A DNA stretch of 26,591 bases from Candidatus Woesearchaeota archaeon (GTDB taxonomy: Archaea > Nanobdellota > Nanobdellia > SCGC-AAA011-G17 > GW2011-AR18). Both the position numbers and the translations under genes were made by a program. The stretch's first letter is position 1, and each line of letters opens with the position of its first letter. The stretch is from assembly GCA_016219825.1 (NCBI GenBank), contig JACRKJ010000043.1:1-26591 (forward strand), given 5' to 3'. The notes under the pieces are model-generated. The model was not told the origin of the DNA, made no database searches, and saw nothing but the letters and a program-made list of their open reading frames with translations. Of this stretch, positions 1,035 to 24,124 are shown in pieces.

Positions 1035-2858
1035 ATGCGCCAGAACAATTATTCGTTACTCGCTTTGGGATTTTTCTTTTTTCTTTTTCTGATTTTTCTA
1101 GCTTTCACCCCTACACTTACCGGGTTCGCCACTGTTACTCTTGGACAAACGCCAGCAGCGTTTTCCCCAGGCATTTTGAATTCCACTTTCACCCTTTCCA
1201 TTGTTGGCGGAGAATTTGCCAAGAACGCGACGCAATTAAGCGCGACAGTTTATTCTGGAACAAACGCTGTTGTTTCTGGAACAAAGACATTACATTTTCT
1301 TCTGAACCAAACATTAGACCTGCCGTTGATGCAGCAAGAGCAGGAATATGGGTTTGGGCAGGCTGGCAATTATATTTTAAATTTAAGTTTATACCAATTA
1401 CAAGTTTCACAATCCGGCACTTATATCTTGAACCTTACTTTGTTTAACGCGACAGCTGTCCTTGATTCATCAGCCCTTGCTATTGCTGTCCAAGCTGTCG
1501 GGGTTTCCGATGGCAAAGGACAACCAAACATTACGAATGTCACTTTCGCGAGCGCTGGCAGCTTAGATGCGCTCGCTTCTGGAACTCTTCAATCTGAATT
1601 CAGAATTGGATCGTATTTGAGATGCAGCGTCCAATATTCTGGCGGAGACTTGAACATCAGCTTCTTCAAACCTGGAGACATTATTCCTGGAAGCGCTTAC
1701 AGAATTTTTACCGGGACAGACTTAACTTGCGTTAATAACACTTGTTTCGCCACGCTTTTCGTCAATCAAACCTTTTTAGGACAATGGGGATGCTACGCAG
1801 AAGCAGCGAATACAGCTGGCAAAGGACAACCACGCATCGGCAATTCATTAATCATGCGCAACAGCCCGCCTACATTACGAACGCCGTTTGAGAATCTCAC
1901 TTTTCCTGTCTCCTCTGAAAATTCCTCATTAACGCTTGACATGAGCGCGAACTTTTTTGATCCTGACACGCAAAATTTAACGTACCAAATTTCCGGATTG
2001 CAGCATTTATCGTTTACCGCGGCAGGAAATAACATTATTCTCACCAATCCGAACAATTATCAAGGAACTGACCACGCGCAGTTCACTGTTTTTGATGGAT
2101 TTACCTCCACGTCCAGCTCTTTTATCACTTTGTTTGTCGGGAATGGCCCAGCCGCACCAACTTCAAATTCTACAAACCAAACCTGCATCCCCCAATGGGC
2201 CTGCAAATGGGATGCGTGCACTGGCGGAAGCCAAACAAAAACCTGCACAGACTCCAATTCCTGCACTGACGCGCAAAATCCAGGCGGGGAAACGCAAAAT
2301 TGCACTGAAGAAAATACTTCCATTCCTGAAGGAGAAATTCAATTTACCTCAGACCAAACACAGACTGAAACTTCCTCGTTCGCGTGGTGGCAGATTTTAT
2401 TGCTTGTTTTAGGCGTTGGCGCGATGATCGCTGGCGGAATTTTATTTTATTTACAAAGACGGAAAGAAAAAAACCAAGCTGTTATTCCTCAAGAAAAATC
2501 TCCTGAACAAAAACCTGCACCTGCTACTGAAACAAGTCAACAACCACAGATTGCAGACGCTCAGCAAGCACAACCTGTTGCAGCGCAGACTTCAAACTTA
2601 TCACAATTGCAAACCTATGTGGAGCAGCTTATGACTGAATATGGGAAGACACAGCAAGAGATTGAACCAGCATTACTGCAGGCTGGATGGAATATTGATG
2701 ATGTGAAAAAAGTCTGCAAGTACGCTACCTTAAAAGTTTTTATGAAAACGAAATTTGACCAAGGATTTTCCGTTGAGCAATTGAAAGCAACTGTTTTAGC
2801 GAAAGGATGGAAACCAGAAATCGTTGAGCACGCGCTGAAAGAACTAGGGAAAAACTAA
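1035..2858 (+). CDS. Membrane-anchored multidomain surface glycoprotein
   Basis: 607 aa. N-terminal hydrophobic segment, Ig/cadherin-like stretch (FFDPDTQNLTY), Cys/Trp module CIPQWACKWDACTGGSQTKTCTDSNSC, TM helix (WWQILLLVLGVGAMIAGGILFYL), Q/P-rich linker and two cytoplasmic GW repeats. About 18 N-x-S/T sequons by hand count. GAGGA SD at 1021-1025. Confidence 0.8.
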   Translation: MRQNNYSLLALGFFFFLFLIFLAFTPTLTGFATVTLGQTPAAFSPGILNSTFTLSIVGGEFAKNATQLSATVYSGTNAVVSGTKTLHFLLNQTLDLPLMQQEQEYGFGQAGNYILNLSLYQLQVSQSGTYILNLTLFNATAVLDSSALAIAVQAVGVSDGKGQPNITNVTFASAGSLDALASGTLQSEFRIGSYLRCSVQYSGGDLNISFFKPGDIIPGSAYRIFTGTDLTCVNNTCFATLFVNQTFLGQWGCYAEAANTAGKGQPRIGNSLIMRNSPPTLRTPFENLTFPVSSENSSLTLDMSANFFDPDTQNLTYQISGLQHLSFTAAGNNIILTNPNNYQGTDHAQFTVFDGFTSTSSSFITLFVGNGPAAPTSNSTNQTCIPQWACKWDACTGGSQTKTCTDSNSCTDAQNPGGETQNCTEENTSIPEGEIQFTSDQTQTETSSFAWWQILLLVLGVGAMIAGGILFYLQRRKEKNQAVIPQEKSPEQKPAPATETSQQPQIADAQQAQPVAAQTSNLSQLQTYVEQLMTEYGKTQQEIEPALLQAGWNIDDVKKVCKYATLKVFMKTKFDQGFSVEQLKATVLAKGWKPEIVEHALKELGKN

Positions 2859-3124
2859 CTGTAAATCTTATCGTGATGATCCAAATCGTAAAACGCTACT
2901 AAATCCTCCCCCCTATTATATTTGAAGATAAGCACAAATGATCCTTTAATATGCACTCTTTTAAATGACTGCATTGGAGAGCGCAAACTTTTGTAATGGT
3001 TAATGTCAACACATTCTATGATCTCTTGTATTTTATTCATTGTTGCTTCATACAACACACGATCTTTCTTGCTTAGTTTCATAAGGTTCTTCTGAAGATT
3101 TTCTTCAATGAGAAATTTACGCAT
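2855..3124 (-). CDS. RelE/YafQ-like type II toxin (mRNA interferase)
   Basis: 89 aa with FKRVHIKGSFVLIFKY and a C-terminal LDHHDKIY typical of archaeal RelE-superfamily toxins; overlaps the upstream small gene by 8 nt. Confidence 0.8.
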   Translation of the reverse strand: MRKFLIEENLQKNLMKLSKKDRVLYEATMNKIQEIIECVDINHYKSLRSPMQSFKRVHIKGSFVLIFKYNRGEDLVAFYDLDHHDKIYS

Positions 3125-3362
3125 TTCCTATTTCTTTTCTTAAACCCGCGATTGAATTATATGATTTGAAATTTCCAGCCTTTTCCATTCTTTTTAGTTT
3201 TTCAGTATATTCTGGCCGCAACTGCGGCTCAAGGAGTTCTTCTTCAAACTTGTCAATAACAAATCGAATCGCGTCGTTTTTGTTCTTTAGACCGTATTTT
3301 CCTTTGACAACTGTCAAGACTTGGTCTTCATGCTCATTTAGTTTTACTAATGTCTGCGCCAT
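3117..3362 (-). CDS. Putative antitoxin (DUF2683-like)
   Basis: 81 aa from ATG 3362 (MAQTLVKLNEHEDQVLTVVKGKYGLKNKNDAIRFVI...LEPQLRPEY); directly upstream of and overlapping the toxin. The track start at 3419 lies in the promoter region. Confidence 0.75.
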   Translation of the reverse strand: MAQTLVKLNEHEDQVLTVVKGKYGLKNKNDAIRFVIDKFEEELLEPQLRPEYTEKLKRMEKAGNFKSYNSIAGLRKEIGNA

Positions 3363-3460
3363 TTTTGTAATCAATTGTAACTTTTTGCAATAAAACATAA
3401 ATATAAATGTTTTTATCAATGTTGCCTTACGCTGTAATTATTTAGATTATCTTTTTTTGA

Positions 3461-5158: not shown

Positions 5159-5262
5159 TTTAGTTGAAATTCTCCATTTATCACTCTTCTTTTTTGTTTT
5201 CCTTTCCAGCCTAATGCAGAAATGAGGATATTTGTATCAATCACTATCTTTTTCTTGCCCAT
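5155..5262 (-). pseudogene. Truncated PIN-domain (VapC-like) toxin, 35 aa
   Basis: Manual translation gives MGKKKIVIDTNILISALGWKGKQKRRVINGEFQLK-stop. IDTNILISAL is the first strand and helix of a PIN domain. It overlaps the upstream AbrB gene by 19 nt and is too short to appear in the ORF track. Confidence 0.75.
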
Positions 5263-5504
5263 TTCACCGCTTCTGCTACATCATTTGATGTTGCTTTTTG
5301 TTTTTTTACATGTTTTTCTATCTCCTTTGATAACTTCTCGAATTCTGCCCTTACATTCGGCATTTCCACTTTTTTAAACAAGACTCCTTCCTTTACAGGC
5401 ATTGCTATAAACCGATCACCTGGCTGAAATGATTCACCTTCCCTGATTCCTTGAGGAACGACCAATTGACCTTTTGGGCTCATCTTTACAAATTCTGTTT
5501 CCAT
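5244..5504 (-). CDS. AbrB/MazE/SpoVT-family antitoxin
   Basis: 86 aa with VKMSPKGQLVVPQGIRE and PGDRF; strong SD GGAGGGTGAG at 5517-5508 and TTTATAT at 5557-5551. Confidence 0.85.
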   Translation of the reverse strand: METEFVKMSPKGQLVVPQGIREGESFQPGDRFIAMPVKEGVLFKKVEMPNVRAEFEKLSKEIEKHVKKQKATSNDVAEAVKWARKR

Positions 5505-7778: not shown

Positions 7779-8528
7779 ATGCGCCTTACATTAACAGAGC
7801 CACGATATTTGAAAGATAGCATCCTTATTATTTCTGAACTTGTCAATGAAGTCAATATCCGCATCTTCAAGGACAGGTTAGAGCTTGTCGCTATTGATCC
7901 AGCGAATGTGGCGATGGTCGTGTTCAAATTATTAAGCAGCGCCTTCACTGAGTTCAACGTTGAGGAAGAGAAAGTAATTGGCATTAATTTAGACCAATTC
8001 ACCCAGATCCTGAAACGATCAAAACCTACAGATGTAATTACACTTGATTTAGATGAAGAAAAAAATAGATTGAATATTGTCTTTAAAGGATCCACGATCC
8101 GCATCTTTAACATGTCCTTATTGGAAATCGAAGACCGAGAGCATAAAGTTCCTCCGTTGAAATTTGGAGTTCGCATCGAGACAAATACATTATTATTCGG
8201 CGACGCTATTGAAGACATGGATGTTGTCGCTGACAGCTTAAGTTTCCACGCCTTGACTGACAAGTTTATCATTAAAAGCGAGGGAACAACCAGCAGCGGC
8301 AAAGTAGAAATAACAAATGATGAAGAAACAACCATCGCCTCAAGCCATGAAGATGAAGTGCAGTCAAAATATTCCATTGAATACTTAAAAAAAATCGTGA
8401 AAGGATCAAAATTAACGAATAATGTGACCTTGGAATTCGGGCCAAACTACCCTTTACGCACGGAGTATAAAGTTGTGGATAAATTAAGCCTGCAGTTTAT
8501 TTTAGCTCCCAGGGTCAGCGACGAGTAA
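7779..8528 (+). CDS. pcn: DNA polymerase sliding clamp PCNA
   Basis: 249 aa with LVAIDPANVAMV, SKYSIEYL and the C-terminal FILAPR motif. Confidence 0.97.
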   Translation: MRLTLTEPRYLKDSILIISELVNEVNIRIFKDRLELVAIDPANVAMVVFKLLSSAFTEFNVEEEKVIGINLDQFTQILKRSKPTDVITLDLDEEKNRLNIVFKGSTIRIFNMSLLEIEDREHKVPPLKFGVRIETNTLLFGDAIEDMDVVADSLSFHALTDKFIIKSEGTTSSGKVEITNDEETTIASSHEDEVQSKYSIEYLKKIVKGSKLTNNVTLEFGPNYPLRTEYKVVDKLSLQFILAPRVSDE

Positions 8529-9657
8529 TCGCTTTCTTGTAAATATTTAAGAATTGACTGCTGACTACATCCAAACTCCATTCGTCTTCAATTGTTTTTC
8601 TCGCCGCATGCGCTATTTTGTCTAGATTTTTCTTCTCCACTTCCCGTATTTTTTTCACAATCGATTTTGGATCATTGGAATGAAGAAAGAACCCGTTTTT
8701 TCCATCTTGAATCAAACTTGGAAGATTTCCCACTTTCGTTGTTATTGGAATCACCGCGCAAGCCATCGCTTCCAGAACCGCATAGGGAAGGCCTTCAAAT
8801 TCTGATGGAAGAACCATGAACCTCGCTCTTTGCAGCCAGCGTTTGTATTCTTGTATATCCCTTATTCCTGTCAATGCCACATTCTTTCCCGCATTTTGCT
8901 CTATTTCCGAGCGCAATTCCCCATCACCCACTAACCAGAGTTTGTAGTCTGGCAATGACTTCATCGCCTCGACTAATTTATCCACTCCTTTCTGCCTTGT
9001 AAATCTCGCAATGTCAATTAATTCCTTGTTTTGTTTTTTGTATTTCGGCGTTAAGTAGCCTGTATCAACTAAGTTCGTGATCTTTACAGTCCTGTCCTTT
9101 CCAATATACCTGCTGTAGAAATCCAGTGTCTCTTTTCCCTGCGAGATAACATACTTGCACTGTTTTAGATTCAACCTCTCCATCCAGAAATAGATTTTAT
9201 GCGCGATGTTCGCAGCAGCCCAGTTTTTGTTCATTGTCTGTATTTTTTTAAATCCTTGATTATGGATGCCATGGGCTGTGGCCACAAACGGGATTTTCGC
9301 GAGGCCGCACACCAGCGCTGGCGTTGTCAAGCTCTGCGCGTCAGCTATATCTGGGTTTATTTTTCTTAGGGCTTTCACCGCTCCAATGATAAACGCGCAT
9401 TCAAAACAGACTCTATATACAATATCCAGCGGCAACAACAGCTTAGAACTTGTAAATCTCCTATGCGGAATCCCAACATTATGAAGCATTGCTTTTTCTG
9501 GAACAGCTAATCTCTGCTTTCCTTTTCCTGGCTTTGAAGAAATCAGATGCACTTCGTGGCCTTTTTTTATTAAGGCTGCCGCAAGATTTGTTTTATGCGT
9601 ATTGCCGCCGCCCTTCACATACGGATAGGGCATTAAATCAATAATCACAATTTTCAT
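8515..9657 (-). CDS. GT4-family (GT-B) glycosyltransferase
   Basis: 380 aa with N-terminal GGG...LIKKGHEVHLIS, KGVDKLVEA and the E-x7-E motif EGLPYAVLE followed by AMACAVIPI. Confidence 0.92.
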   Translation of the reverse strand: MKIVIIDLMPYPYVKGGGNTHKTNLAAALIKKGHEVHLISSKPGKGKQRLAVPEKAMLHNVGIPHRRFTSSKLLLPLDIVYRVCFECAFIIGAVKALRKINPDIADAQSLTTPALVCGLAKIPFVATAHGIHNQGFKKIQTMNKNWAAANIAHKIYFWMERLNLKQCKYVISQGKETLDFYSRYIGKDRTVKITNLVDTGYLTPKYKKQNKELIDIARFTRQKGVDKLVEAMKSLPDYKLWLVGDGELRSEIEQNAGKNVALTGIRDIQEYKRWLQRARFMVLPSEFEGLPYAVLEAMACAVIPITTKVGNLPSLIQDGKNGFFLHSNDPKSIVKKIREVEKKNLDKIAHAARKTIEDEWSLDVVSSQFLNIYKKAITRR

Positions 9658-9677
9658 TTTCTTCTTCTTTTTCAGAA

Positions 9678-9712
9678 CCTTTAAATACTTTTCAGAATGA
9701 CCTTTTTTATAA
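9678..9712. promoter_or_regulatory. Divergent promoter region between glycosyltransferase and epimerase
   Basis: Minus strand AAAAGTATTTAAAG with first T at 9685, 28 nt before ATG 9657; plus strand TTTTTATAA at 9704-9712, 27-29 nt before ATG 9733. Confidence 0.55.
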
Positions 9713-9732
9713 CTCTCCTGAGTTTTATTCCC

Positions 9733-10650
9733 ATGCCCTCTTATCGTGGAAAACGTGTTCTGGTCACCGGCGCTTCCGGCTTTATTGGAAAAAATTTAGT
9801 CCCACGGCTGCTTGAAGAAAAAGCTGTTGTCACGTCACTTTCCTTAGCCGCAGGCTCTCCCTTTCCAAATGCGGAGCATCTGTCTGTTGACTTGACAAAC
9901 AGGGGACAAACCCTCGCAGCATTGACTGGAAAAGAATTTGATTTTATTTTTCATCTTGCCGCGAATATTTCCAGGGATTCCAAAGACAAAGAAGCTGTGT
10001 TCGCCGCGAATGTGGAAGGAACACGGAACCTACTTGAAGCGCTCCGCTATACTTCTTATCAACGATTTGTTCTGCCGAGCACTGCTGAGGTTTACAACCA
10101 TAACGCTGTTCCCTTTGTTGAGACACAAGAAGCACATCCCCTTTCTTCGTACGCGCAATCTAAATTCCAGGCAGAACGCCTCTGCCTTGAAGAAGCTGCT
10201 ACTTATAAAAAACCAACAACCATTTACCGCATCGCTGTTTCGTATGGACCGCACCAGAAGCCAGCTCTTTTAATCCCCAACGTGATTCTTTCCTGCCTGC
10301 ATCAAACTGATGTTCCTTTAACACTTGGAGAAGAGACCAGGGATTTTATCTACATACAGGATTTAGTCGAAGCACTCTTAGTAAGCTCAAAACTTACTGG
10401 AAAAGGAGAAATTTTGAATATTGGAACTGGAATAGAATCAAGCGTGCGCTCTATCGCTGAATATATCCATGCAATTACACATTCACGCTCCAACCTCCAA
10501 TTTGGCATGTACCCCCTTCGCCCAGGCCAGCCAATACGCTATTGCGTCAACACTTTGAAAGCTGAACAATTACTGGGATGGAGAGCAACTACTTCACTTC
10601 ATGAAGGACTGCAGAAGACGATCGCATGGTATCAACGCCAGCAAATTTAA
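9733..10650 (+). CDS. NAD-dependent nucleotide-sugar epimerase/dehydratase (extended SDR)
   Basis: 305 aa from ATG 9733 with VLVTGASGFIG, HLAA, STAEVY and YAQSK (YxxxK). The track start at 9697 lies upstream of the TATA-like motif at 9704-9712. Substrate cannot be assigned. Confidence 0.92.
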   Translation: MPSYRGKRVLVTGASGFIGKNLVPRLLEEKAVVTSLSLAAGSPFPNAEHLSVDLTNRGQTLAALTGKEFDFIFHLAANISRDSKDKEAVFAANVEGTRNLLEALRYTSYQRFVLPSTAEVYNHNAVPFVETQEAHPLSSYAQSKFQAERLCLEEAATYKKPTTIYRIAVSYGPHQKPALLIPNVILSCLHQTDVPLTLGEETRDFIYIQDLVEALLVSSKLTGKGEILNIGTGIESSVRSIAEYIHAITHSRSNLQFGMYPLRPGQPIRYCVNTLKAEQLLGWRATTSLHEGLQKTIAWYQRQQI

Positions 10651-10700: not shown

Positions 10701-11453
10701 ATGCAGAAAAGAGGGCAGGTCACGTTGTTTGTATTCTTAGGGTTAGTTGTCCTGATTTTAATTTCATTATTTTTTTACGTCCGGTCTCAGTATGGATTTT
10801 TTGTTCCTTCCCAAGATTTTTTATCCTCTAAAGCAAGCGATATCCAGCAGGATCTTGAATATTGCGTTGAGACAGAAGTTTCTCCGCTCGTTAAAGAATT
10901 CTCCTTACAAGGAGGAAATCTACACCCCACTTCGTTTGTTTTGTATCATGATTCTCCTGTTTCATTTTTATGCAGAAAAACAAACCATGGAACGTGTGTT
11001 AATTATTTAACTCCATTGGGGGGTATGCTAACGAATCTACAAAATTCTTTAGACCAGAAGTTAAACGCATGTGTGAATAAAAAATTATTATCTGAACAAG
11101 GATTCAGCATTACTGGGAATAAAAATGTTCAATCTCTTGTCCAATTACAAGGAAATTCAATCAGCGTTGTTTCCACATATGATGTCCAGCTTCATCGCGA
11201 CACCGCAAGCATGCGCATTTCCCCTGTTAGAAAAACAATCGCGGACGCCCCACTTGGGGAATTATATCCTGTTGTGCATGATATCCTAGAAAAAGAAGCG
11301 ACTGCTGGAACATTTGACCAACTGTTTTATATGCTGCAGAAGAAAGGAAAATACTTGATCGAAGTTGACAGGCCGTATCCACATACTATTTATAGAGTAT
11401 ATAAAAAAGACAGCACATATGAGTTCTGGTTCGCTGTTGAGGGGAAAGCATGA
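10701..11453 (+). CDS. Class III signal peptide (prepilin-like) protein
   Basis: MQKRG/QVTLFVFLGLVVLILISLFFYV: short basic leader, G, Q at +1 and a hydrophobic helix; 250 aa with Cys in the globular part; ATGA overlap with the next gene. Confidence 0.8.
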   Translation: MQKRGQVTLFVFLGLVVLILISLFFYVRSQYGFFVPSQDFLSSKASDIQQDLEYCVETEVSPLVKEFSLQGGNLHPTSFVLYHDSPVSFLCRKTNHGTCVNYLTPLGGMLTNLQNSLDQKLNACVNKKLLSEQGFSITGNKNVQSLVQLQGNSISVVSTYDVQLHRDTASMRISPVRKTIADAPLGELYPVVHDILEKEATAGTFDQLFYMLQKKGKYLIEVDRPYPHTIYRVYKKDSTYEFWFAVEGKA

Positions 11454-14400
11454 AGAAATTTGTAGCTCTCTTTGAAATTCTGCTTCTTGTTCTTACAAGC
11501 TTTACTGTTCTTAGTTTTTCCGCTCCTTCTGTTCGTGCCGCTCCTGTTTGCTGCGAGAAAACAAAAGCTGGAGAATTCTGCCAGTATACTGATGAACAAC
11601 AATGCGAGACTGGATTACGAAACGCAAATGATCCAAGCAAAGGAACCTATCAAAACGCGCCTACCAGCTGTGACGCAACTTCCTTCTGCAAACCTGGTTG
11701 CTGCAGCGATGAATTAGGAGATGGATTTTGTTATTCAAATACGCCAAAAGCGAACTGCCAGCTTTCTTATGGCGGGAAATTTTCTGAACAACCTGATTGC
11801 TCTACTGTTGGAAGCTGTTCTGAAGGCTGCTGTATTCTAGGAAGCCAGGCTTTCTTGAGCACTTCTGTCCGCTGCCAAAAAGAAGCTGCCAAATATCCTT
11901 CCCTTACCCTTGACTTTAAAGCTGATGTGAAAGATGAGGCAAGCTGTGTCGGACTGGCGAAGAGCGCTGATAAAGGCTGCTGCGTCAACAGCCAAGACAA
12001 CTGCAAATATGTAACACGCGCTGAATGCTCTGCCTCAACAAATGGGAACAGCACTGGATTTTTTTCTGGGAAAGCATGCAGCGATTTGGGATTAAGCACA
12101 TGCACCTGCGCTCCAGCTGATAAAAACACGCAAGGAAAAGACAACACTATGTGCATCCCTGACGATGATTCTGTATATTGGAAAGATAGTTGTGGGAATC
12201 CTGAAGGGATCAAGGAAAAATGCGATTACGCTTCTGGAACTCTCTGCGGGGATTCCAATGGCGACCGGATTTATACATGCGAAAGCGTCAATTGCAAGAC
12301 TGGGGATAAAAAATTAAGCTTGGATTTTGACAGCCAAGCGAAAGACAGCGTTACACACGATACAACTGTGAGAAATGGGGAAAGCTGGTGTTTGTATGAT
12401 CCTGAAATCCAGCCTGGCGGTGATGGACTGAGCAATGACCAGTTGTTATCCAGTGTCACTGGAAAAAATTTACGCAATCTTTTGTATGCTTCCCGCGAGC
12501 CTGTTGGATCACGACATTATCGTGGCTCTTGCATTAATGGAAAAGAATATGTTGAACCATGTTCTGATTTTCGAAAAGATTATTGTTTACAAAGTTCTGT
12601 TGGCGGCAACGCGAGCATGAACCTTGGGAATGATGGAGAGAAATTCACTGAAGCGAAATGCACTGAAAATAGAGCTGGAAGCTGCATCAGCGACTGCAAT
12701 AAAGCTGACCCAACTAAATTTAAAAAATCTGATGGAAGCTTAGACCAGGCTGCTTTTGAACAAGCGCTGCAAGAAGATGTGCAATGCTGCACTGATGTTT
12801 CAAAAAGAGATTGCGCATGGGCTGGAACAAAATGCGTTCCGCGTGTCGGACAAGGATTCAAGCACTGGGAAGGAGATGGCGTTACTACTTGCGCAAGCGC
12901 CAGCTTAGACTGCTCTTTTACTGTCAAGTGCAATGGATGGAGCAATCTTTTTGGACTTTGCAAAAATTATTGGTATCCTATTGATGGAAGCGGGAACCAG
13001 CTCAGCATTGACCAAATTCCCTGCTTGAGAAAAGAGTATGTGCAGACCGCGAATAATTATTGCAGAAGCTATGGCGACTGCGGCGCTGATTATAATATCG
13101 CGGGGAAATTAACCACTGAAGGATTTTCCAGCCCACCTACTTTGGGAGATGATTTTGAGAACATTGTCAGCTACGCAGGCGTTGATAAAAAAACGAGCGC
13201 TTACCTTCATGAGATCGCATTGAGCGCGAAGAATCCCCCACGATGGGATATTGGGTTAGGCGCAATTAATTTTTCCCTTCCTCCAGAACAGTATAACGCG
13301 TGGGCAGATTACTTTGTTGGAAGCGCTTGGGACATCCCTCATTGGCTCGCTCTCGCGAATGTCGCTCCTTATGTTGTTGTTGGACTTGCTCATTTGGCAG
13401 GATTGACTACAATTAGCGCGGAGCTTGGACTGACTTATCTTTCAGCGCCTTTGGCAGGTCTTTTTGCGCAGGCGACTGCAACAGCTACAACAGCTACAAC
13501 AGCTTCTGCCGTCGCAACTCTTATTCCTATTATCAATGTTGCTCTGATTATATATACTGTTTATTCCATTGTTGATGTCGCGAACGCTGACATACAGACC
13601 CTTTCTGTCAAAACATTATGCAAACCATGGAGTGCCCCTGTCGTCTCGAATGACTGCGAGAAGTGCAATCCTGATTACTGGAAAACAAAGGATGGAAAAC
13701 CCACTGATGTCAATGCGTTTAAGGCATGCTCTGAATACCGCTGCAAAAGTTTAGGAGCGACGTGCCAATTCATCAATCAAGGCACTGGCAATGAGACCTG
13801 CGTCAGCGTCAGCAAAGGCGATGCGCAAGCGCCGATTATCAGCCCATTAAAAGAAAAATTCGAAAAAGAATATCAAAATAATATCCAGACTGTGCAACAA
13901 GGATTAGAAGTTACTAAAAACTTCACTGTGTACACTCCTGTTGTTGTCGCGCTGCAGACTGATGAACCAGCGCGATGTAAAATGAGCTTCAAGCCTGGAC
14001 GGCCTTACAAAGAGATGGACGATATTTTCTTTGGCCAGTCTATTTTCCAGTATCCCCATGTACAGCCTGTCTATTTCGCGAGCAATAAAGTCGTTGATGA
14101 AAAAGGCGTTTCTTTACGCGGCGGAGGGGAATACAAACTTTATGTCCGATGCGAGGACGCTGGCGGCAACACCAATGAAAAAGATTATGTATTAAAATTC
14201 AAGGTTGATCCGCAGCCTGACGCGACCGCCCCTGTTATTCAAGCGACCTCTGTTGGGAAAGAAGTGTACTTGACTGCTGGGACCGGCAATAACACTGATG
14301 TCACCCTCTATACAAATGAACCAGCGGACTGCAGATGGAGCTTCAATCCACTGCGTTATACTGAAATGCCCGCGACACAACAATGCACGACGCGCCCGCA

Positions 14401-15139
14401 GCCTGATGTCTTGGGATACACCTGCGAGTTTAGGAATAATACGCAACTTGGCACAAAACCAATTGCCTTCAGCAAACCTGTCGCAGCAGGAGAAAAAATA
14501 TTCACCTATTTCAAATGTCAGGATAAATCTCCACAGCACAATTTCAATAAAGACCCTTATGATGTCACGTTTTATGGGACAAAACCTTTATCGATCACGA
14601 ACATTGAACCTAGCGGATCCCTCTTCAGCAATCTCGCTGTTCCAAATGTAACTTTGCATGTTGAAACTTTAGGCGGAGCAAAATCAAACGGTGAAGCGCT
14701 CTGCAAATACACGCAGCGAGCATCGTACGCGCATACTCTTTCCGCGATGGATGATTTTTTCCAGCAAACAAATGGAAGCAGCCATGAACAAACCTTGAAA
14801 TTATCGACTGGCGACCATACATTCTTTGCCGGCTGTTATGATGTCGCTGGCAACACTGCATATACAAATACTACCTTCAGTTTACTCGCAGATAATACTG
14901 GGCCAACGATCTTGAAAGCATATAAATCAGACCGCCCTTCGCAATTAATTTTAGCTGTAAGCGAGGACGCAACGTGCCAGGAAAGCGTTACGAATAAGAA
15001 TTTTGTTTTTGGCGAGGGAAACTTACTGCAGAAAGACGGGAATGTCCATACAAGTTTAACGCAATCTGATGTGTATTATATACATTGCAAAGATAACTAT
15101 AATAATATCGGCAATGTTATTACGCTAACGTTTGTTTAA
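11450..15139 (+). CDS. Giant Cys-rich secreted protein with internal hydrophobic hairpin and four C-terminal Ig-like repeats
   Basis: 1229 aa with a Sec-type signal (MKKFVALFEILLLVLTSFTVLSFSAPSVRA), about 64 Cys by hand count including repeated GCC motifs, a hydrophobic stretch at about aa 632-707 and no C-terminal TM helix. Confidence 0.85.
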   Translation: MKKFVALFEILLLVLTSFTVLSFSAPSVRAAPVCCEKTKAGEFCQYTDEQQCETGLRNANDPSKGTYQNAPTSCDATSFCKPGCCSDELGDGFCYSNTPKANCQLSYGGKFSEQPDCSTVGSCSEGCCILGSQAFLSTSVRCQKEAAKYPSLTLDFKADVKDEASCVGLAKSADKGCCVNSQDNCKYVTRAECSASTNGNSTGFFSGKACSDLGLSTCTCAPADKNTQGKDNTMCIPDDDSVYWKDSCGNPEGIKEKCDYASGTLCGDSNGDRIYTCESVNCKTGDKKLSLDFDSQAKDSVTHDTTVRNGESWCLYDPEIQPGGDGLSNDQLLSSVTGKNLRNLLYASREPVGSRHYRGSCINGKEYVEPCSDFRKDYCLQSSVGGNASMNLGNDGEKFTEAKCTENRAGSCISDCNKADPTKFKKSDGSLDQAAFEQALQEDVQCCTDVSKRDCAWAGTKCVPRVGQGFKHWEGDGVTTCASASLDCSFTVKCNGWSNLFGLCKNYWYPIDGSGNQLSIDQIPCLRKEYVQTANNYCRSYGDCGADYNIAGKLTTEGFSSPPTLGDDFENIVSYAGVDKKTSAYLHEIALSAKNPPRWDIGLGAINFSLPPEQYNAWADYFVGSAWDIPHWLALANVAPYVVVGLAHLAGLTTISAELGLTYLSAPLAGLFAQATATATTATTASAVATLIPIINVALIIYTVYSIVDVANADIQTLSVKTLCKPWSAPVVSNDCEKCNPDYWKTKDGKPTDVNAFKACSEYRCKSLGATCQFINQGTGNETCVSVSKGDAQAPIISPLKEKFEKEYQNNIQTVQQGLEVTKNFTVYTPVVVALQTDEPARCKMSFKPGRPYKEMDDIFFGQSIFQYPHVQPVYFASNKVVDEKGVSLRGGGEYKLYVRCEDAGGNTNEKDYVLKFKVDPQPDATAPVIQATSVGKEVYLTAGTGNNTDVTLYTNEPADCRWSFNPLRYTEMPATQQCTTRPQPDVLGYTCEFRNNTQLGTKPIAFSKPVAAGEKIFTYFKCQDKSPQHNFNKDPYDVTFYGTKPLSITNIEPSGSLFSNLAVPNVTLHVETLGGAKSNGEALCKYTQRASYAHTLSAMDDFFQQTNGSSHEQTLKLSTGDHTFFAGCYDVAGNTAYTNTTFSLLADNTGPTILKAYKSDRPSQLILAVSEDATCQESVTNKNFVFGEGNLLQKDGNVHTSLTQSDVYYIHCKDNYNNIGNVITLTFV
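13479..13504 (+). repeat. In-frame 9-nt tandem repeat (CAACAGCTA x 2.9)
   Basis: CAACAGCTA CAACAGCTA CAACAGCT, within the ATATATTATTAS loop of the hydrophobic hairpin. Confidence 0.8.
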
Positions 15140-15558
15140 TTTTCTTTTCGTTCTATTATCTTTATAATCTCTTTTGTTGAAAGAACCTTAACTTCTACTT
15201 GGTCTTTAAGCGCCTCGTCGTTTGACCAGAGAAAACATTGTTTTTTTAACGCAAGCGCCAGATAAAGAGCATCATCTGGATCTGGACTTATTTCTCTTGC
15301 TTTTGGCAGCTTTTCTTCGCATTCTTGCGCACTTACTGTTGTGACTACTTCCTTTAACGCTTTTACAATCTCTTCAAACTGCTCCCCTTTTCTTTTTGTC
15401 TTCTTCAAGATTTCCCCCCTATGCCTCTCAAATTCTTCAAAGAGAAATTCAGGGGCAAATAAATTTACACTGCTCGAGAAAATAATCTCCGCAGTTACGC
15501 TTTCTTTAATCAGGGCAGCAAAAAGAATATTTGCGTCAATAACCAGACTTAGACTCAT
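15136..15558 (-). CDS. vapC: PIN-domain toxin (VapC-like)
   Basis: 140 aa with LVIDANILFAAL, EEF, DPDDALYLALAL and LWSND; the acidic PIN residues appear intact. Confidence 0.9.
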   Translation of the reverse strand: MSLSLVIDANILFAALIKESVTAEIIFSSSVNLFAPEFLFEEFERHRGEILKKTKRKGEQFEEIVKALKEVVTTVSAQECEEKLPKAREISPDPDDALYLALALKKQCFLWSNDEALKDQVEVKVLSTKEIIKIIERKEN

Positions 15559-18291: not shown

Positions 18292-18414
18292 TTTTTACAT
18301 AATTTCACTAAAAAGTGATAACGTAAATTTCTTTTCCCTTCATCCTGTTGTTGTTTATACCTGGTAAAAGCCGTGAATTTGGCCAAACTAACAATATGTA
18401 TGTTCTCGAGTATA

Positions 18415-18468
18415 GGAATCTTTATAAATGCAACAACGTCAACACCCAGTACACAACACTTGGAGGTG
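18415..18468 (+). promoter_or_regulatory. S-layer gene promoter and strong Shine-Dalgarno site
   Basis: TTTATAAA at 18421-18428 and GGAGGTG at 18462-18468, 6 nt before ATG 18475. Confidence 0.7.
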
Positions 18469-18474
18469 TTACTT

Positions 18475-20895
18475 ATGCAAGAACGTTTAGCGTTACGACA
18501 AACATTAAAGAAAGTTGCTGCTTTGGGTACCAGCGTAGCAATGTTAGGAATGACTATTACTGGGGCTGTTGCTCAAGAACAAGCTGCCGCTTCTAGCGCG
18601 AGTTTAAGCTCATTTCCAAAAGCTTTTACAACTAACACTGTCGTTGTTGTGGGTTCACATGCTGATCCTGCTGATAATTTAGCTGCAAGCGCAGTTGAAT
18701 TCGCTTTAGGCGCCGCATCCGCATCTGCAAGTTCCAGCTCTTCATCAACGAGCTCTACCACTTCTTCGACTACACCTTCTACTGGCGCAGTCCAACTAGA
18801 AGATGGATATAGCAAAGAAATTGTTCTTGGAACAGCTTTAACTGATTCCACAAACGCATTTGGCGCGACAGTCCGGGAAACACGTATCCCGACTTTTAAG
18901 AAAGGAACTGTCACTATCTCTATTGGAGGAACAACAAATTCCTACAATTGGCATGAAGAAGTTGGCTTTCGAGCAGACTCTAATGCGACTGTTACTTCAT
19001 CTTTAGCTTTAGCAAACCAAAATCAAGCTAATGAACAGTATAAGGACAATGTGCTTTTACGACTTCCATCAAGTTCGATTCGTTACGCATATGTCTTTGA
19101 CACTGCCTTGAAGACAAACAACTATATTTCGAACGCGACACAGACTGACCCTATTACATTGGATTTCTTAGGTAAAACCTTAGTTATTCAAAACTGTAAC
19201 AGCTCTCCTTGTACTGGAGCAACAACTGCCGCAAGTTCGATTACTGCCTTATCTGGAGACAAATTCCCAGGTTTGCATAAAGGGGATACCATTATGTACC
19301 AAGGAAAGAAAATCTCTGTTGATTCACTTGCCTCCTCTGGAGCTGCAATCAACGTTGATGGCAATACTATCGTTGTCAGCAATAACAACCAGCGAACAGA
19401 CCAAAAATCTGGCTTGCAAATCCGCGCAGAAGATCTTCTTGCGACAGGAACAAGCGGAGAAGGTTTAAGCACTGTTTCCTTGATTATTGGAAAAGATAAC
19501 GCGATTAAGACGTATAATGATGGAGATTACTTTATCGGGCAAGATAAATACACTCCTTTATGGACTTGGTCTCTTGCAGGCATTAATGGTGGAAATCCAA
19601 GCTTAAATGTGACATTGGGACAAACATTGACCTCGTACTCTATTACAGGCATTCCCAACTATCCATTGACGCATCCACCTTATCTTGGTGATGTGCTTTG
19701 TTGGCCAAACAACTATATCTGTGTTCAGGTTTCAAAGGTAAGTCAAACAGATGATCTCTTTGGAGAATATGTCTTGCGACCTACTCAAAGAGACTTGTAC
19801 GCAACTGATGACTCTGTTGTCAACTTTACCTCTGCAAATGTGCTTGAACTTACAGCACTTGGACAGAAGGATACAGGTATCAACGCAGGTGGAGATACAC
19901 AATCTGTTTATTTCTACCCTAATGCAACCTATGGTCTCTTGCTCTATAAGAAGAAACAAGATTCCAGCCACGCTATTCTTGTAGCAGCTGCTACAAACAC
20001 TCTGCACGCAGGTGATGGTGCTACAGCTGGATGGGGCGGTGCTATGGACGCAGTCGCTTTCGCAAATGCGAACGGGACGACAATGCTTCCAGGCAACTTC
20101 TCCGCGAGCGTCTTTACCTTGAACTACAAGAGCAGTAGCATTCCAGTAGATATTGCATGGAACTCAAGCGTTTCGCTTGCCAACATTACCCTTACTGGTG
20201 GAAGCGGCGCAGGAGCATTAAAGATCAATCCCTCAGGAACTGCGAATGATATTGTTGTTGTTTTGCAAGCAGCGAGTACTGGATTGACTTATTTGGGTCA
20301 ATCCCAATCTGATACTGTCAGAGGCGGCGATTTGGCTTACAATGGGACGACAGCTGTTGATATTTCCGGCTTCCGTGAAGATGGAAGAACTGTCAACGGC
20401 ATTATTGTTCGTTCGTACTATAAATCTGCGCCTTCTGATACGTTGCAGTTTGCATTGCCTCCAGACATTTCCAACTACAAAGCGACTGTGAAGTTAGCCC
20501 GCGCAGTTGGAGCTGGTGTTGTTGGTACTGTTGTTCCAGGCAGCACAAGCACTAGTGGCGTCAGTGAGAAGCTTGATACTGATGTTGTCAACAGCTTATC
20601 GCAATGGAATGTCATCAGTGTTGGCGGACCTGCTATCAACTCTGTAAGCGCAAAGCTGAAAGGACTGCCTTTCCCAAGTTACGGGGACGCAAGCGGTATC
20701 AAACCAAATGAAGGCGTCGTTGAGCTTATGCCAAACGGCAGCAACTGGGCACTCTTAGTGGCTGGCTATGAGAAAGACAATACACAAGCTGCTGGTGAAG
20801 TCCTTAAGAATTATGCGGACTACAACACACAACTTTCTGGCAAGACCTCAGTCGTTGTGAAAGGCTTGAAAGCAACTGGCATTACCGTTGCTTAA
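18475..20895 (+). CDS. S-layer protein (MJ0822-like S_layer_N / S_layer_C architecture)
   Basis: 806 aa from ATG 18475. Signal LKKVAALGTSVAMLGMTITGAVA, N-terminal VVVVGSHADPADNLAASAV, C-terminal NVISVGGPAINSVS...LLVAGYEKDNTQAAGEVL, and about 12 sequons. Confidence 0.88.
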   Translation: MQERLALRQTLKKVAALGTSVAMLGMTITGAVAQEQAAASSASLSSFPKAFTTNTVVVVGSHADPADNLAASAVEFALGAASASASSSSSSTSSTTSSTTPSTGAVQLEDGYSKEIVLGTALTDSTNAFGATVRETRIPTFKKGTVTISIGGTTNSYNWHEEVGFRADSNATVTSSLALANQNQANEQYKDNVLLRLPSSSIRYAYVFDTALKTNNYISNATQTDPITLDFLGKTLVIQNCNSSPCTGATTAASSITALSGDKFPGLHKGDTIMYQGKKISVDSLASSGAAINVDGNTIVVSNNNQRTDQKSGLQIRAEDLLATGTSGEGLSTVSLIIGKDNAIKTYNDGDYFIGQDKYTPLWTWSLAGINGGNPSLNVTLGQTLTSYSITGIPNYPLTHPPYLGDVLCWPNNYICVQVSKVSQTDDLFGEYVLRPTQRDLYATDDSVVNFTSANVLELTALGQKDTGINAGGDTQSVYFYPNATYGLLLYKKKQDSSHAILVAAATNTLHAGDGATAGWGGAMDAVAFANANGTTMLPGNFSASVFTLNYKSSSIPVDIAWNSSVSLANITLTGGSGAGALKINPSGTANDIVVVLQAASTGLTYLGQSQSDTVRGGDLAYNGTTAVDISGFREDGRTVNGIIVRSYYKSAPSDTLQFALPPDISNYKATVKLARAVGAGVVGTVVPGSTSTSGVSEKLDTDVVNSLSQWNVISVGGPAINSVSAKLKGLPFPSYGDASGIKPNEGVVELMPNGSNWALLVAGYEKDNTQAAGEVLKNYADYNTQLSGKTSVVVKGLKATGITVA

Positions 20896-20896
20896 A

Positions 20897-20923
20897 TTTT
20901 TTCTTTCTCTTTTTTCTTTTTTT
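20897..20923 (+). terminator. Oligo-T tract after the S-layer stop codon
   Basis: TTTTTTCTTTCTCTTTTTTCTTTTTTT immediately after TAA 20893-20895; archaeal intrinsic terminators are T-rich. Confidence 0.6.
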
Positions 20924-20969
20924 ATCATAATCTTTTTATATCCCTTCTTTCTTTGACTCTTATTCCCTT

Positions 20970-21581
20970 ATGAAAAAGCAACGCTACAGAAAGTCTGATG
21001 GAATATCATCAGAAATAAATGCTCGTGATCCTTCTTTGTTTAAACGACGATTCACTTTAGGAATCCTCGCTTTTGGCATTATCTTTCTCATGGTTGGATC
21101 TGTGTTAACCTACTGGGCAAGTTCAGCAGCAGATCAATCTGTGTATAATGGCTATTCATTTTTTCAGTCTGGACAAGGATGGACGACACAAATAGACGGC
21201 CAGACATTGACCTTTCCTGTTCTGCCTAAAGATGTCGCTTCATTTCCCAGCGTTCAGTTTGACCTTGACCCTTATCCTAAGTTATATCTTCTTTTTAATC
21301 CAGACAACTTTACTGAACAAAGCAGAGAGGTCGCGCAACTTCGAAGCGCGCTTTTGAGCACTGGAAAAACTATTGTTCCAGCATGCACACAATCTTTCTC
21401 CTGCGGCGACTTACCTGTTCTCAACTGCACAACTGCTGACGCGCCCAGCCTTCTTTTAGAGCAAAGCGATGTTACAGGATTATTCGCTTCTGACCGGTGC
21501 TTGGTTCTCCACTACGCGCCTGGGCAGTATGATTCCTTACTTGTTCATTTCTTGTATAAATATTACCATATCCTCCCATGA
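20970..21581 (+). CDS. Membrane-anchored extracellular protein of unknown function
   Basis: 203 aa with a basic N-terminus, TM helix FTLGILAFGIIFLMVGSVLTYW, YNGYSF, ACTQSFSCGDLPVLNC and DRCLVL. Confidence 0.8.
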   Translation: MKKQRYRKSDGISSEINARDPSLFKRRFTLGILAFGIIFLMVGSVLTYWASSAADQSVYNGYSFFQSGQGWTTQIDGQTLTFPVLPKDVASFPSVQFDLDPYPKLYLLFNPDNFTEQSREVAQLRSALLSTGKTIVPACTQSFSCGDLPVLNCTTADAPSLLLEQSDVTGLFASDRCLVLHYAPGQYDSLLVHFLYKYYHILP

Positions 21582-22201
21582 AACTGCTCTTTGTTTTTTT
21601 CTGCATTCTTCTTTTCATAAGCGCATGCTCTCCTCCAGACCCAACCCATTTTGTGTATCATGGAAAAAACGGCGATTATCCTGTTGATGTTGTGACACGA
21701 GGAAATTCCACTGATTATTACATTACTGTTTTATTTCAAAATGAAACTGGAAATGTTTCCTATCAAATCCCCCTTTCATTTAGCCCAGTGAGTGTTGTGA
21801 ATGTTTCTGTTGAAGGAAATATTGAGTCCGCGTTGAACAGACCCCAGGAAACTAACCTTGTTTATATCACCCAGGATCCGCAGACCGCTGTCCTTACAGA
21901 CCAAAAATCTGTGCTTGCTGTGTATGACATTGGGAAAATTTTAGGGACTGGAAGCGCTGGACTGTATAAAATTCCGACACTTCCCGCATTCACTTCCGCC
22001 ACTGAACGTTCTCAAATCAATAGCATCCCCGTTATTGCCTGCAGCAACGTTTCTTCAACTGCCGGCGTTATTTTATTGCAGTTAGGAAATACTACCCGTA
22101 TTCTTGTACAGAATGACTGCATCATTGTTGAAGGAACAAATGGGACAGAACTATTCCGCGCAGCAGACAAACTCGCTTACTCTCTTCTTGGCGTTTTTTA
22201 G
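21578..22201 (+). CDS. Lipobox-like extracellular protein, distant paralog of the preceding gene
   Basis: 207 aa; MKLLFVFFCILLFISAC, IPVIAC, NDCIIVEG, AADKLAYSLLGVF; ATGA overlap with the previous gene. Confidence 0.8.
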   Translation: MKLLFVFFCILLFISACSPPDPTHFVYHGKNGDYPVDVVTRGNSTDYYITVLFQNETGNVSYQIPLSFSPVSVVNVSVEGNIESALNRPQETNLVYITQDPQTAVLTDQKSVLAVYDIGKILGTGSAGLYKIPTLPAFTSATERSQINSIPVIACSNVSSTAGVILLQLGNTTRILVQNDCIIVEGTNGTELFRAADKLAYSLLGVF

Positions 22202-22257: not shown

Positions 22258-22938
22258 GTGAATTCATTGGCACAACAACCAAAACCCATTTCTTCTTTCG
22301 TTCTTTTCAGCTTGTTTTTTTTAGCAGGTTTGTATTTAGGATACAGCGTTTTTTCCTTTTTAAATTCCTGGCGATCTAATCCCTCCGCGCTTGGCGCAGC
22401 AACCAGCACTGTTGGGAACTTTACCGTGAGCCTTGTCAGCACGATCGCATGCACCTGGAGCGATGCAGCAATTAACATCACGTTTGGCACGCCAGGCTCT
22501 ACCATCACCCAAGGCAATACTCTCAACGCGTCCCGCAATTACAATTATTCCACTGATGGCGCTGGCAGCGCTTCCAATGGCAGCGATTACAATGTGACTG
22601 CCGCAGCCACCAATACAGTTAAGGTCAACATTACTCTCGCTGGACAGTCTCTTCTTGAAACAGCTGGCGGCAATGTCTTGAACATTACGAATATTTCCTG
22701 GGGATCTAATACCACCACCGCAAACAGCACTGGCGGTACTGCGCTTGATAACATGACCTATCCTGGCGTGCCCTTTAACTCAAGCTTCCAGGGTGATACA
22801 TCCCATCATGTTGCCACGCTTGAACCTGCAGGCAGCTCTGTCTGGTTTCGATTCTGGCTCGCTGTCAACAGCAACCAAGCTGCTGGTCTCTATCGCGGCA
22901 ATTACACGATGACCTGCTCAGACTCAGGATCAGCATAA
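22258..22938 (+). CDS. Sequon-rich two-Cys beta-sandwich surface protein (subunit A)
   Basis: N-terminal TM helix, exactly two Cys (IACTWS, TMTCSD) and 14 N-x-S/T sequons. Start uncertain: GTG 22258, or TTG 22267 preceded by GGTGA at 22257-22261. Confidence 0.8.
   Translation: MNSLAQQPKPISSFVLFSLFFLAGLYLGYSVFSFLNSWRSNPSALGAATSTVGNFTVSLVSTIACTWSDAAINITFGTPGSTITQGNTLNASRNYNYSTDGAGSASNGSDYNVTAAATNTVKVNITLAGQSLLETAGGNVLNITNISWGSNTTTANSTGGTALDNMTYPGVPFNSSFQGDTSHHVATLEPAGSSVWFRFWLAVNSNQAAGLYRGNYTMTCSDSGSA
22410..22429 (+). repeat. 20-nt exact direct repeat shared by subunits A and A' (second copy 23659-23678)
   Basis: TGTTGGGAACTTTACCGTGA at both sites, followed by TTGTCAGCAC at 22433-22442 and 23682-23691. 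Confidence 0.85.
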
Positions 22939-22939
22939 A

Positions 22940-23518
22940 ATGATCCCACGTTTTTCCCTCTTTTGCGTCTTACTTCTCCTTTTGAGTATTCCTTTCGCTG
23001 CCGCTGATATCGGCATTGGATTAAGCCCAGCTAAACGTGTTTTCCATAATATTGAAGGCGGACAAACTATTGAGGAAACTTATACTGTCTATAATACAGG
23101 GGATGGTCCAATCAACGCTAATCTCGGCGCAGATGGCGCAATCGCTTCATTTGTTACAGTTATCCCTAAAGCTGTTTATGTTGAGCCTGAACCTCAACCA
23201 CATTCATTGCCTATTAAAAATGGAAAACAGTTTACAGTGCGATATAAAGTTCCTACTGGCTGGGAAGCGAAGCTTTATACTGGACAGATCGTCGCATCTG
23301 GCGGCGCTGCTGGCGGGACGCTTGGCGGTAATGTCGCTGTCGCGATGGTCGTTGAACTTTATTCTATTCCTACGAAATATTTCTGGAATCGCATCAGCAA
23401 AGAACAATACCTGCTTACTGGGAGTATCTTCTTATTCTTGATGCTTCTCCTCCTTACTCTTGTTTATATGCGGCGCAAAGGGATTCAAATCCAACTTGTT
23501 AAATCAAGACGTCCCTAA
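22940..23518 (+). CDS. Secreted single Ig-like domain with C-terminal TM anchor (partner B)
   Basis: 192 aa; signal ending FAAA, then DIGIGLSPAK...YTVYNTGDGP...YKVPTGWEAKLYTGQIVA, TM helix LLTGSIFLFLMLLLLTLVYM and a basic tail; 1-nt gap from the previous stop. Confidence 0.8.
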   Translation: MIPRFSLFCVLLLLLSIPFAAADIGIGLSPAKRVFHNIEGGQTIEETYTVYNTGDGPINANLGADGAIASFVTVIPKAVYVEPEPQPHSLPIKNGKQFTVRYKVPTGWEAKLYTGQIVASGGAAGGTLGGNVAVAMVVELYSIPTKYFWNRISKEQYLLTGSIFLFLMLLLLTLVYMRRKGIQIQLVKSRRP

Positions 23519-23560
23519 TTTAGGGAAAACAATAAAAACTAGATCTACTCTTCTTAGTTT

Positions 23561-24124
23561 ATGCAGAAAGCGGTGATTTTCCTTTATCTGTCTCTTTTTC
23601 TCGTTCTTGGGTTTTTATTAGGACTTTTTTCCATTCATTATACTGGGCATCAAACTTTTGTTGGGAACTTTACCGTGAATGTTGTCAGCACTGTCTCCTG
23701 CACTGTCAGCACTGATGGAATGAACGTTTCATTTGGAAGCAATTTAGAAGATGGTGAGGTTTATAACGCTACAAAAAATTATAACTATCGAACTGTCGGC
23801 ACTTCTTATAATATTACCAATGATCAGACAAGCACTACCACAATGAATGTCAGCATTAAAGGAATTGATTTTATTTCTGATTCATTGGTTCTTAAGATAG
23901 GTAATCTCTCATGGGCGAGCAATGATACCTCCCCTAATGGGACTAATCTTCTCTTTCCAGGAATGGCGAATCTATCCACTAGTTATTCTTCCCTTAATCT
24001 CGCTTCTGATCTCAGCGCTGGAAGCACAGCATGGTATCGTTTTTGGATCCGTATCCCTGACAATCAACCTGGAGGTTCCTATCAAGGAAATTATACTCTT
24101 TTATGCCAAGCAAACAACCCTTAA
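23561..24124 (+). CDS. Sequon-rich two-Cys beta-sandwich surface protein (subunit A', paralog of 22258-22938)
   Basis: 187 aa with an N-terminal hydrophobic helix, two Cys (VSCTVS, TLLCQA) and 10 sequons; co-linear motif match to subunit A. Confidence 0.82.
   Translation: MQKAVIFLYLSLFLVLGFLLGLFSIHYTGHQTFVGNFTVNVVSTVSCTVSTDGMNVSFGSNLEDGEVYNATKNYNYRTVGTSYNITNDQTSTTTMNVSIKGIDFISDSLVLKIGNLSWASNDTSPNGTNLLFPGMANLSTSYSSLNLASDLSAGSTAWYRFWIRIPDNQPGGSYQGNYTLLCQANNP

Follow-up and report, generated by a model that had tools for sequence, protein, structure and literature searches.

The giant protein P0001 from a Candidatus Woesearchaeota archaeon is a disulfide-rich exported protein interrupted by a hydrophobic module that may insert into the membrane of another cell. 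Its gene lies in the window analysed here, the whole 26,591-nucleotide stretch of contig JACRKJ010000043.1. We found by comparison of sequences that P0001 is encoded in a pilin-like operon, that its relatives occur as pairs of paralogs, that the hydrophobic module is hypervariable and that the charged insert carried by the module has lost its N-glycosylation sequons. The interpretation that we prefer, at a strength that falls a little short of probable, is that the exported module inserts into a host or partner membrane, resembling a translocon in function without being homologous to the translocons. Judging from its sequence, the loop of the paralog type to which P0001 belongs (W type) is likely to be exported and not to be threaded through the producer's own membrane in two passes. 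The proteins make up a real, widespread and apparently undescribed family of envelope proteins of Nanobdellota (DPANN archaea) with an exported hydrophobic loop. Family representatives at E <1e-30 number 1,007 (50% clustering), the database names of the homologs are Nanoarchaeota, Woesearchaeota and Pacearchaeota, and a profile matched 88 of the 201 genomes sampled from the class, including 33 of 34 from the same order and 30 of 31 from another family, f34.

A preliminary description of this DNA had drawn attention to a segment of P0001 with a single charged residue, and that segment is real. It covers amino acids (aa) 632-708, or nucleotides 13343-13573 (77 aa; the start had been placed correctly and the end one nucleotide short), its sole charge is a Glu and its composition includes 17 Ala, 12 Leu, 11 Thr, 8 Val, 7 Ile and 4 Gly. 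Runs with no more than one charged residue extend to 80 aa, a length reached by none of 10,000 shuffles (maximum 73). As had been reported, 47 Cys precede the segment and 17 follow it; none lies inside. A Logan contig covers positions 13131-13903 with no differences (one contig, possibly from the source sample and not independent), and no RNA sample was listed as holding the sequence. The hairpin that had been proposed stands in part: the hydrophobic stretch is present, but in place of a clean two-helix hairpin there are H1a (aa 632-651), H1b (aa 655-672), a Thr/Ala linker and H2 (aa 687-711), and it is H1a/H1b (aa 632-672) that is likely to be the inserting hairpin. In an AlphaFold2 (AF2) model the predicted local distance difference test (pLDDT) score is below 50 over aa 608-684, and H2 is confident. 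The hydrophobicity of the stretch is moderate, with a best Kyte-Doolittle (KD) 19-residue window (KD19) of 2.08 and a sum on the biological scale of +2.0, compared with medians of 2.5 and -2.0 in 24 putative single anchors that were picked by hydropathy from the same genome (the hydrophobicity scale values are approximate). In P0002, the closest relative (67% and 64% identical in the two halves), there are about 84 aa of charged sequence that P0001 lacks directly after aa 666; the uncharged run in P0001 is thus long partly because this insert is gone, leaving H1a/H1b joined almost directly to H2. P0001 is a reduced form in which the insert has been lost.

The preliminary description also held that both flanks of the stretch look extracellular, and Cys parity, covariation and a model of the core bear this out. 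An odd number of Cys is present in each half of 211 of 236 complete homologs, and the C-half count is odd in 238 of 247, a pattern that holds in the W type and in the other paralogs (T type) alike; if all Cys pair, one disulfide must then reach across the module. Mean-field covariation in 255 sequences yielded, as a consistent set, the cross-module pairs 487-719, 489-717, 470-768, 472-762, 473-766, 550-764 and 553-735, with scores that are modest and some top pairs that are possibly noise. The AF2 model of the core (aa 297-799) has a predicted template modelling score (pTM) of 0.76 despite containing 101 low-confidence residues. The two flanks are predicted to form one disulfide-closed core domain from which the module loops out. 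In the C-half, column-controlled odds ratios were 1.5 for NxT (z 7.6) and 0.58 for NxS (z -7.6), with the skew present in both classes; since this is the skew expected of glycoproteins, the C-half looks glycosylated and hence outside. It folds as tandem Ig domains, matches to which filled the whole-model fold searches, and it contains no KD19 window of at least 1.6 in any of 121 sequences, that is, no C-terminal transmembrane anchor. A single-pass model with a cytoplasmic Ig half was rejected on the Cys parity, the cross-module contacts and the NxT/NxS skew. The core model had no match at Z >=5 among 48,161 chains, a result that neither proves a new fold nor excludes any family (the model is also longer than the 400 residues recommended), no match in BFVD at E <=0.001 and no viral match at E <0.35.

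The module itself, bounded by the anchors DCG and C724, ranges in length from 128 to 438 aa in 121 sequences and is not conserved in sequence. The preservation of hydrophobicity without preservation of sequence, which the preliminary description had treated as telling, is what the homologs display: a KD19 window of at least 1.2 occurs in 115 of the 121 modules, and the number of such segments per module runs from 0 to 5, odd and even. Our pool comprised 272 unique proteins, of which 255 had both anchors and 189 remained after the modules had been clustered at 40% identity. In a tree of the flanks the W type, to which P0001 belongs, forms two well-supported clades of 21 and 55 sequences (support 1.0 and 0.976); these proteins have an amphipathic H2 with the motif N..W.YT.Y...D and a charged insert with a median of 122 aa (n=76 modules), and across the relatives charged inserts span 60-310 aa. 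T-type proteins, which are the remainder and not a clade (110 counted, three divergent rows omitted), combine a strongly hydrophobic H2 with modules that are for the most part uncharged, the uncharged runs having a median of 60 aa and extending up to 149 aa. One W and one or two T paralogs were present at 12 of 14 relative loci (one of them, L023, by the tree only, BLAST having called both copies W), and the pairing of W with T recurred at 8 of 8 further loci from the same order; f34 loci have T types only. A single giant stands at L027:7396-11508 and at L051:2852-6991, as it does in the window. At L022:15327-16004 a W-type copy apparently lacks most of H1 when compared with the near-identical P0016, a gap that may be natural or may have arisen where the assembly collapsed a short repeat. 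The hypervariable loop contains a LysM domain or Cys-rich mini-domains in P0068 (aa 776-820), P0067, P0073 and P0080, hinting at recognition of host glycans.

The charged inserts are almost devoid of sequons. We counted 4 in the W inserts of 76 modules against 58.7 expected (a ratio of 0.07), with five control patterns at 0.89-1.02; the trimmed insert core, which is 25% charged, has 3 against 43, and the T inserts have 2 against 29.8. Cytoplasmic control windows gave a ratio of 0.97, composition-matched windows rich in A/E/K/Q gave 44 against 43, and 0 of 5000 resamples had 4 or fewer sequons; a control made of cytoplasmic tails (6 against 5.9) holds 3 tails only and is too small to count. The sequences are kin and the z and P values are therefore overstated; the inserts share little sequence. 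Variable loops of the N-half tolerate sequons (0.68-2.0), and the Ig domains have 0.55-1.2. Where one paralog is split in two (L026, L032-L038), the linker of the C-half is free of sequons (5 proteins, 0 observed against 5.9 expected); the two halves are often separated by an unrelated gene. In eukaryotes, according to the available text of PMC5562741, regions that face the cytosol are neutral in sequons and buried sites are depleted, and we infer that the same pattern extends to archaea.

These counts bear most directly on the ordinary two-pass arrangement, which the preliminary description had named as the counter-case to its own idea and in which H1 and H2 cross the producer's membrane with the insert in the cytoplasm. 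Such an insert would be unseen by the oligosaccharyltransferase AglB and its sequons would stand at chance; the depletion observed contradicts this, at 0.07 of expectation compared with about 1.0 in cytoplasmic controls. The W helices are moreover marginal, with summed-scale medians of +4.1 and +5.5 against -2.0 in the 24 anchors, and their flanks have no positive-inside bias: K/R per 15 aa is 1.05 and 1.49 on the would-be cytoplasmic side and 2.08 and 1.42 outside, compared with 3.5 after the helix in the anchors. That two hydrophobic zones flank a soluble loop does fit a two-pass protein, as does the distribution of K/R around the T-type H2 (2.0 after it vs 0.4 before), while the total sequon frequency of the C-half, which is near neutral at 0.88-0.95, would suit either two passes or a single pass with the Ig half inside. 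An internal C-half is opposed by the evidence from disulfides, contacts and sequon skew given above. Taken as a pair, these two arrangements are very unlikely, and for the W type, where the loss of sequons from the insert and the absence of a positive-inside bias both disfavour it, the ordinary two-pass is largely refuted.

A module that anchors the giant in its own membrane by another route deserves more weight, even if we regard it as rather unlikely: it would enter from outside as a tight or re-entrant hairpin (or, in T types and P0001, as a short-looped two-pass), and the Cys core with its Ig arm would be an adhesin. A re-entrant hairpin fits the loss of sequons, the T-type H2 has a summed-scale value of -2.0, which is the level of true anchors, in modules that are nearly uncharged, and P0001 has its 80-aa uncharged run. 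The giant has no C-terminal anchor and a leader that looks cleavable, and the long hydrophobic module accompanies pilin-like anchors that are encoded by a gene of their own and is missing from the fused forms. Against this, W helices are far weaker than anchors, the hydrophobic segments vary in number from none to five without regard to parity, and self-anchoring alone leaves unexplained both the T and W pairing and a glycan-free charged insert of 60-310 aa. It is unlikely, too, that the module never meets a membrane and is instead a buried helical core joining T, W and pilin-like proteins in a complex at a filament tip or across the envelope, with the insert recognising the host surface. Loss of sequons marks buried sites and interfaces (PMC5562741, in its available text) and here it covers the whole core and the partners, the polar-aromatic motif of H2 is conserved and confidently modelled, and one insert carries LysM. 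Interfaces, however, are usually conserved in sequence and length, whereas in this module composition alone is kept and lengths run from 128 to 438 aa; the long uncharged runs of the T type and the apparently single paralog in this genome also speak against a buried core.

Insertion into a target membrane, which is the reading we prefer, can be set out as a sequence of events. The giant would be exported by Sec past AglB, and its 250-aa pilin-like partner would fasten it at the surface to an assembly resembling a type IV filament. On contact, the Gly/Ala-rich hairpin H1 would insert into the target membrane and the amphipathic insert would spread on or through it, and the hydrophobic T and amphipathic W paralogs would co-assemble in the manner of the major and minor translocators of type III secretion systems (T3SS). 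A fuller version, tentative and on balance doubtful, is a hitherto unrecognised translocon, in archaea of the Woesearchaeota/Pacearchaeota type, in which a type IV filament-like assembly displays paired giants built on a new disulfide core fold, their glycan-free modules insert together and open a conduit for feeding on the host, and the insert sets the host range.

Several observations weigh against insertion into a host. The module may have pore, fusion or conduit activity in a host membrane, but no host is known. P0001 is itself an awkward representative: its H2 is more hydrophobic than is typical of the W type (KD 2.1 vs 1.25), it has no insert, so that the sequon test bears on it by way of its relatives only, and a T paralog for it was not found, this being the single giant in the genome (the assembly is 80.6% complete). 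The depletion of sequons says that the insert is exported and not glycan-tolerant, not that it enters a host. Nor is that depletion special to the insert, because ratios are also low in the N-half overall (0.29-0.32) and in the partner proteins (about 0.2-0.3), and burial in a complex would explain the loss equally well. T-type H2 segments are as hydrophobic as anchors and should stop in the producer's own Sec channel. An uncharged run of at least 35 aa discriminates poorly: T modules have one in 103 of 114 cases and W modules in 42 of 76, but so do 20 of 76 N-halves. The helical amphipathicity of the insert exceeds that of shuffled sequence only slightly (0.217 vs 0.191, a weak test). In one subclade the insert holds a LysM domain or up to 12 Cys, which would be hard to thread through a membrane, and these domains suggest that the insert stays outside the target. 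Finally, the fused forms of the giant have no long hydrophobic module, so the core can work without it.

The preliminary description had likened the stretch to the membrane-inserting elements of colicins, T3SS translocators and large clostridial toxins, and no link to any of these emerged from sequence or fold searches. Like the T3SS translocators (SipB/IpaB/YopB/AopB with SipC/IpaC/YopD), the giants would form an exported pair of which one member is more and the other less hydrophobic, and the available text of PMC9993115 describes amphipathic helices and shielded helical hairpins whose insertion follows secretion. The giant differs in its Sec-type leader, its disulfides and its Ig domains, and no injectisome or chaperone gene is present in the cluster; the giant and its module had no match to translocators in Pfam, NCBIfam or PDB-sequence searches, and none was listed by the fold search with the core (the module has pLDDT <50). 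With colicin pore domains and alpha-pore-forming toxins it has in common a Gly/Ala-rich uncharged stretch beside charged helical segments in a soluble exported protein, but we found no homology, the module of the giant is an internal loop of a disulfide core with a threefold variation in length, and no immunity gene for it was identified. The likeness to T3SS translocators and to colicin pore domains would be one of function, by analogy, and none of their features that can be tested in sequence was found. TlyC-like toxins of DPANN archaea are set apart by description, as a different family in the annotation given in the accessible part of PMC9723730. Class II fusogens (HAP2 and the archaeal Fsx1) likewise include archaeal, Cys-rich, exported proteins with Ig-like domains, but the giant has no C-terminal transmembrane anchor and its core had no viral match at the threshold given above. 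A fold match of Fsx1 to the core (58 residues, Z 4.6, root-mean-square deviation 4.0) was within background and was set aside.

The locus appears closest to the accessory clusters of archaeal type IV filaments, which it resembles in its gene cluster with K/R-G↓Q leaders, in its large exported Cys-rich Ig-fold protein and S-layer-like gene, and in having its ATPases and prepilin peptidase elsewhere in the genome (system/clade 1, Epd pili and 'adhesin or minor pilin' proteins, as portrayed in the available portions of PMC4858521 and PMC13705601). Scattered type IV filament genes are typical of Nanobdellati in the latter account. The differences are that the giant has no DUF2341 or PilY-type match, that its partner has Phe and not Glu at +5, and that the descriptions available for the accessory proteins mention neither T/W pairs nor a hydrophobic module inside the protein.

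It is an open question how DPANN archaea attach to their hosts and establish cytoplasmic bridges. The proteins of the attachment organelle of Nanobdellota (cone, portal and filament) are stated to be unknown in the available text of PMC11420986, as are the nanotube genes in that of bioRxiv 10.64898/2026.06.04.730037; the organelle was seen in Nanobdellales, of the same phylum. Other DPANN candidates, and not the giant-protein family, are described in the available parts of PMC9723730 and PMC8204110, and in the literature that we covered, which excludes subscription journals, we found no description of this family, although it may be among the module 98 families of PMC8204110 as an unannotated one. 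Searches of Pfam, NCBIfam and PDB sequences with P0001 returned nothing beyond a sub-threshold Big_13, the same searches with a 16-member alignment of the module returned no match, and in the Atlas the whole protein matched unnamed archaeal clusters only and aa 560-730 gave no usable match. The giant would be a candidate for the means by which tiny archaea of the symbiotic type plug into their hosts. If insertion is true, this would be a categorically new membrane-penetration system, with no descent from T3SS translocators, colicins or class II fusogens; under the rival explanations, too, the envelope machine is very widespread and its core has a fold without a match. The evidence on topology makes a loosely defined 'surface protein' testable, giving it a bounded module, from DCG to C724. 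Two paralog types are available for mixing, and there are natural variants in which the insert is deleted (P0001), split (f34) or absent (fused forms).

Features of the giant protein and its gene cluster, in window coordinates.
Feature	Position	Strand	Evidence or remark
250-aa partner with pilin-like KRGQ leader, overlapping the start of the giant	10701..11453	+	Fused to Cys core in distant relatives
Giant Cys-rich exported protein P0001, 1229 aa, 64 Cys, W-type paralog of Nanobdellota family	11450..15139	+	Open reading frame
N-terminal signal peptide, AxA-like site at its end ahead of first CC	11450..11542	+	Sequence
Disulfide-rich small repeat units, aa 34-285	11549..12304	+	Cys pattern; AF2 pLDDT mostly 70-88
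Conserved Cys core, N-terminal part, aa 297-560, containing invariant DCG anchor	12338..13129	+	No VIA match at Z >=5
Hypervariable looped-out module, DCG to C724, aa 546-723	13085..13618	+	128-438 aa in 121 homologs
H1a/H1b, Gly/Ala-rich uncharged stretch, aa 632-672, xPLGxL-like motif	13343..13465	+	pLDDT <50
Gap site where the charged insert (~84 aa) of P0002 is absent	13445..13453	+	Alignment with P0002; one contig spans the sequence
H2 helix, aa 687-711, W-class motif N..(W).YT.Y...D, confident helix	13508..13582	+	pLDDT 78-95
Cys core, C-terminal part, aa 712-792, 7 Cys, predicted to pair with N-terminal part	13583..13825	+	Cys parity, covariation, AF2 pTM 0.76
Ig-like domains in tandem, aa 793-1229	13826..15136	+	Pfam Big_13 below cut-off; Foldseek and VIA Ig matches, Z up to 9.3
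Four genes with pilin-like leaders, 160, 322, 156 and 155 aa	15918..18291	+	Conserved downstream
S-layer-like protein and two conserved small membrane-anchored proteins, end of cluster	18400..22201	+	Pfam S_layer_C E=1.4e-8; synteny

The gene order recurs in the relatives: PCNA, one to three units each made up of a KRGQ-leader protein of about 255 aa and a giant, then the four genes with pilin-like leaders, the S-layer gene and the two small membrane proteins, with some loci rearranged, interrupted or cut by contig ends. The four downstream genes had no NCBIfam match and no Pfam match at the cut-off. A leader motif of the form K/R-[GAS]↓, which is a loose pattern, was found in 21 of 23 partners and, across the four downstream families, in 36 of 43 proteins. 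The mature partner has Gln at +1 and, in 21 of 21 cases, Phe at +5, whereas a mature type IV pilin has Glu at +5; that position varies in the downstream families. Besides AglB/STT3, the genome has genes for a prepilin peptidase and for three secretion ATPases (the ATPases and the peptidase scoring over the cut-off), and the partner is putatively processed by this type of peptidase and incorporated in a filament. The leader of the giant is of another kind: in 147 of 172 homologs an AxA-like site (again a loose pattern) stands no more than 14 aa from the first CC. A class III signal was considered for this leader and rejected, the F/Y/L-Q/E-I/L element being present in only 56 of 172 and the AxA-like site being common. 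Four distant loci encode the KRGQ protein, the Cys core and Ig domains as one fused protein, and in the fused forms of L029-L031 the module measures only about 95 aa and lacks any long hydrophobic run. At 7 of 10 f34 loci and at L026, one paralog is encoded as separate N- and C-halves, the C-half having its own leader followed by the module.

Elsewhere, a second pairing of a pilin-like protein with a giant, from another family, is present in genome G000, where a 711-aa homolog of the KRGQ partner (C65:1327; E 9e-30) precedes a 2227-aa protein with 46 Cys (C65:3459). A distant relative encodes an exported protein of 1372 aa with 133 Cys (L029:10885-15003). In the window, a GT4-type glycosyltransferase on the minus strand and an NAD-dependent epimerase (8515-10650) lie between PCNA and the partner, at the place where relatives of the same family have a T-type pair, and a PIN-domain gene (15136-15558, minus strand) follows the giant directly and is convergent with it; the cluster of the relatives is often interrupted by PIN, nucleotidyltransferase-like or ATPase-like genes (the last two labelled by eye). 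Beyond the cluster, a run of exported Asn/Thr-rich surface proteins of 226, 192, 187 and 635 aa, with no confident Pfam match, occupies 22258-26010, and small genes at 2855-3419 and 5244-5504 (minus strand) resemble, by eye, a RelE-type toxin-antitoxin pair and an AbrB-type regulator.

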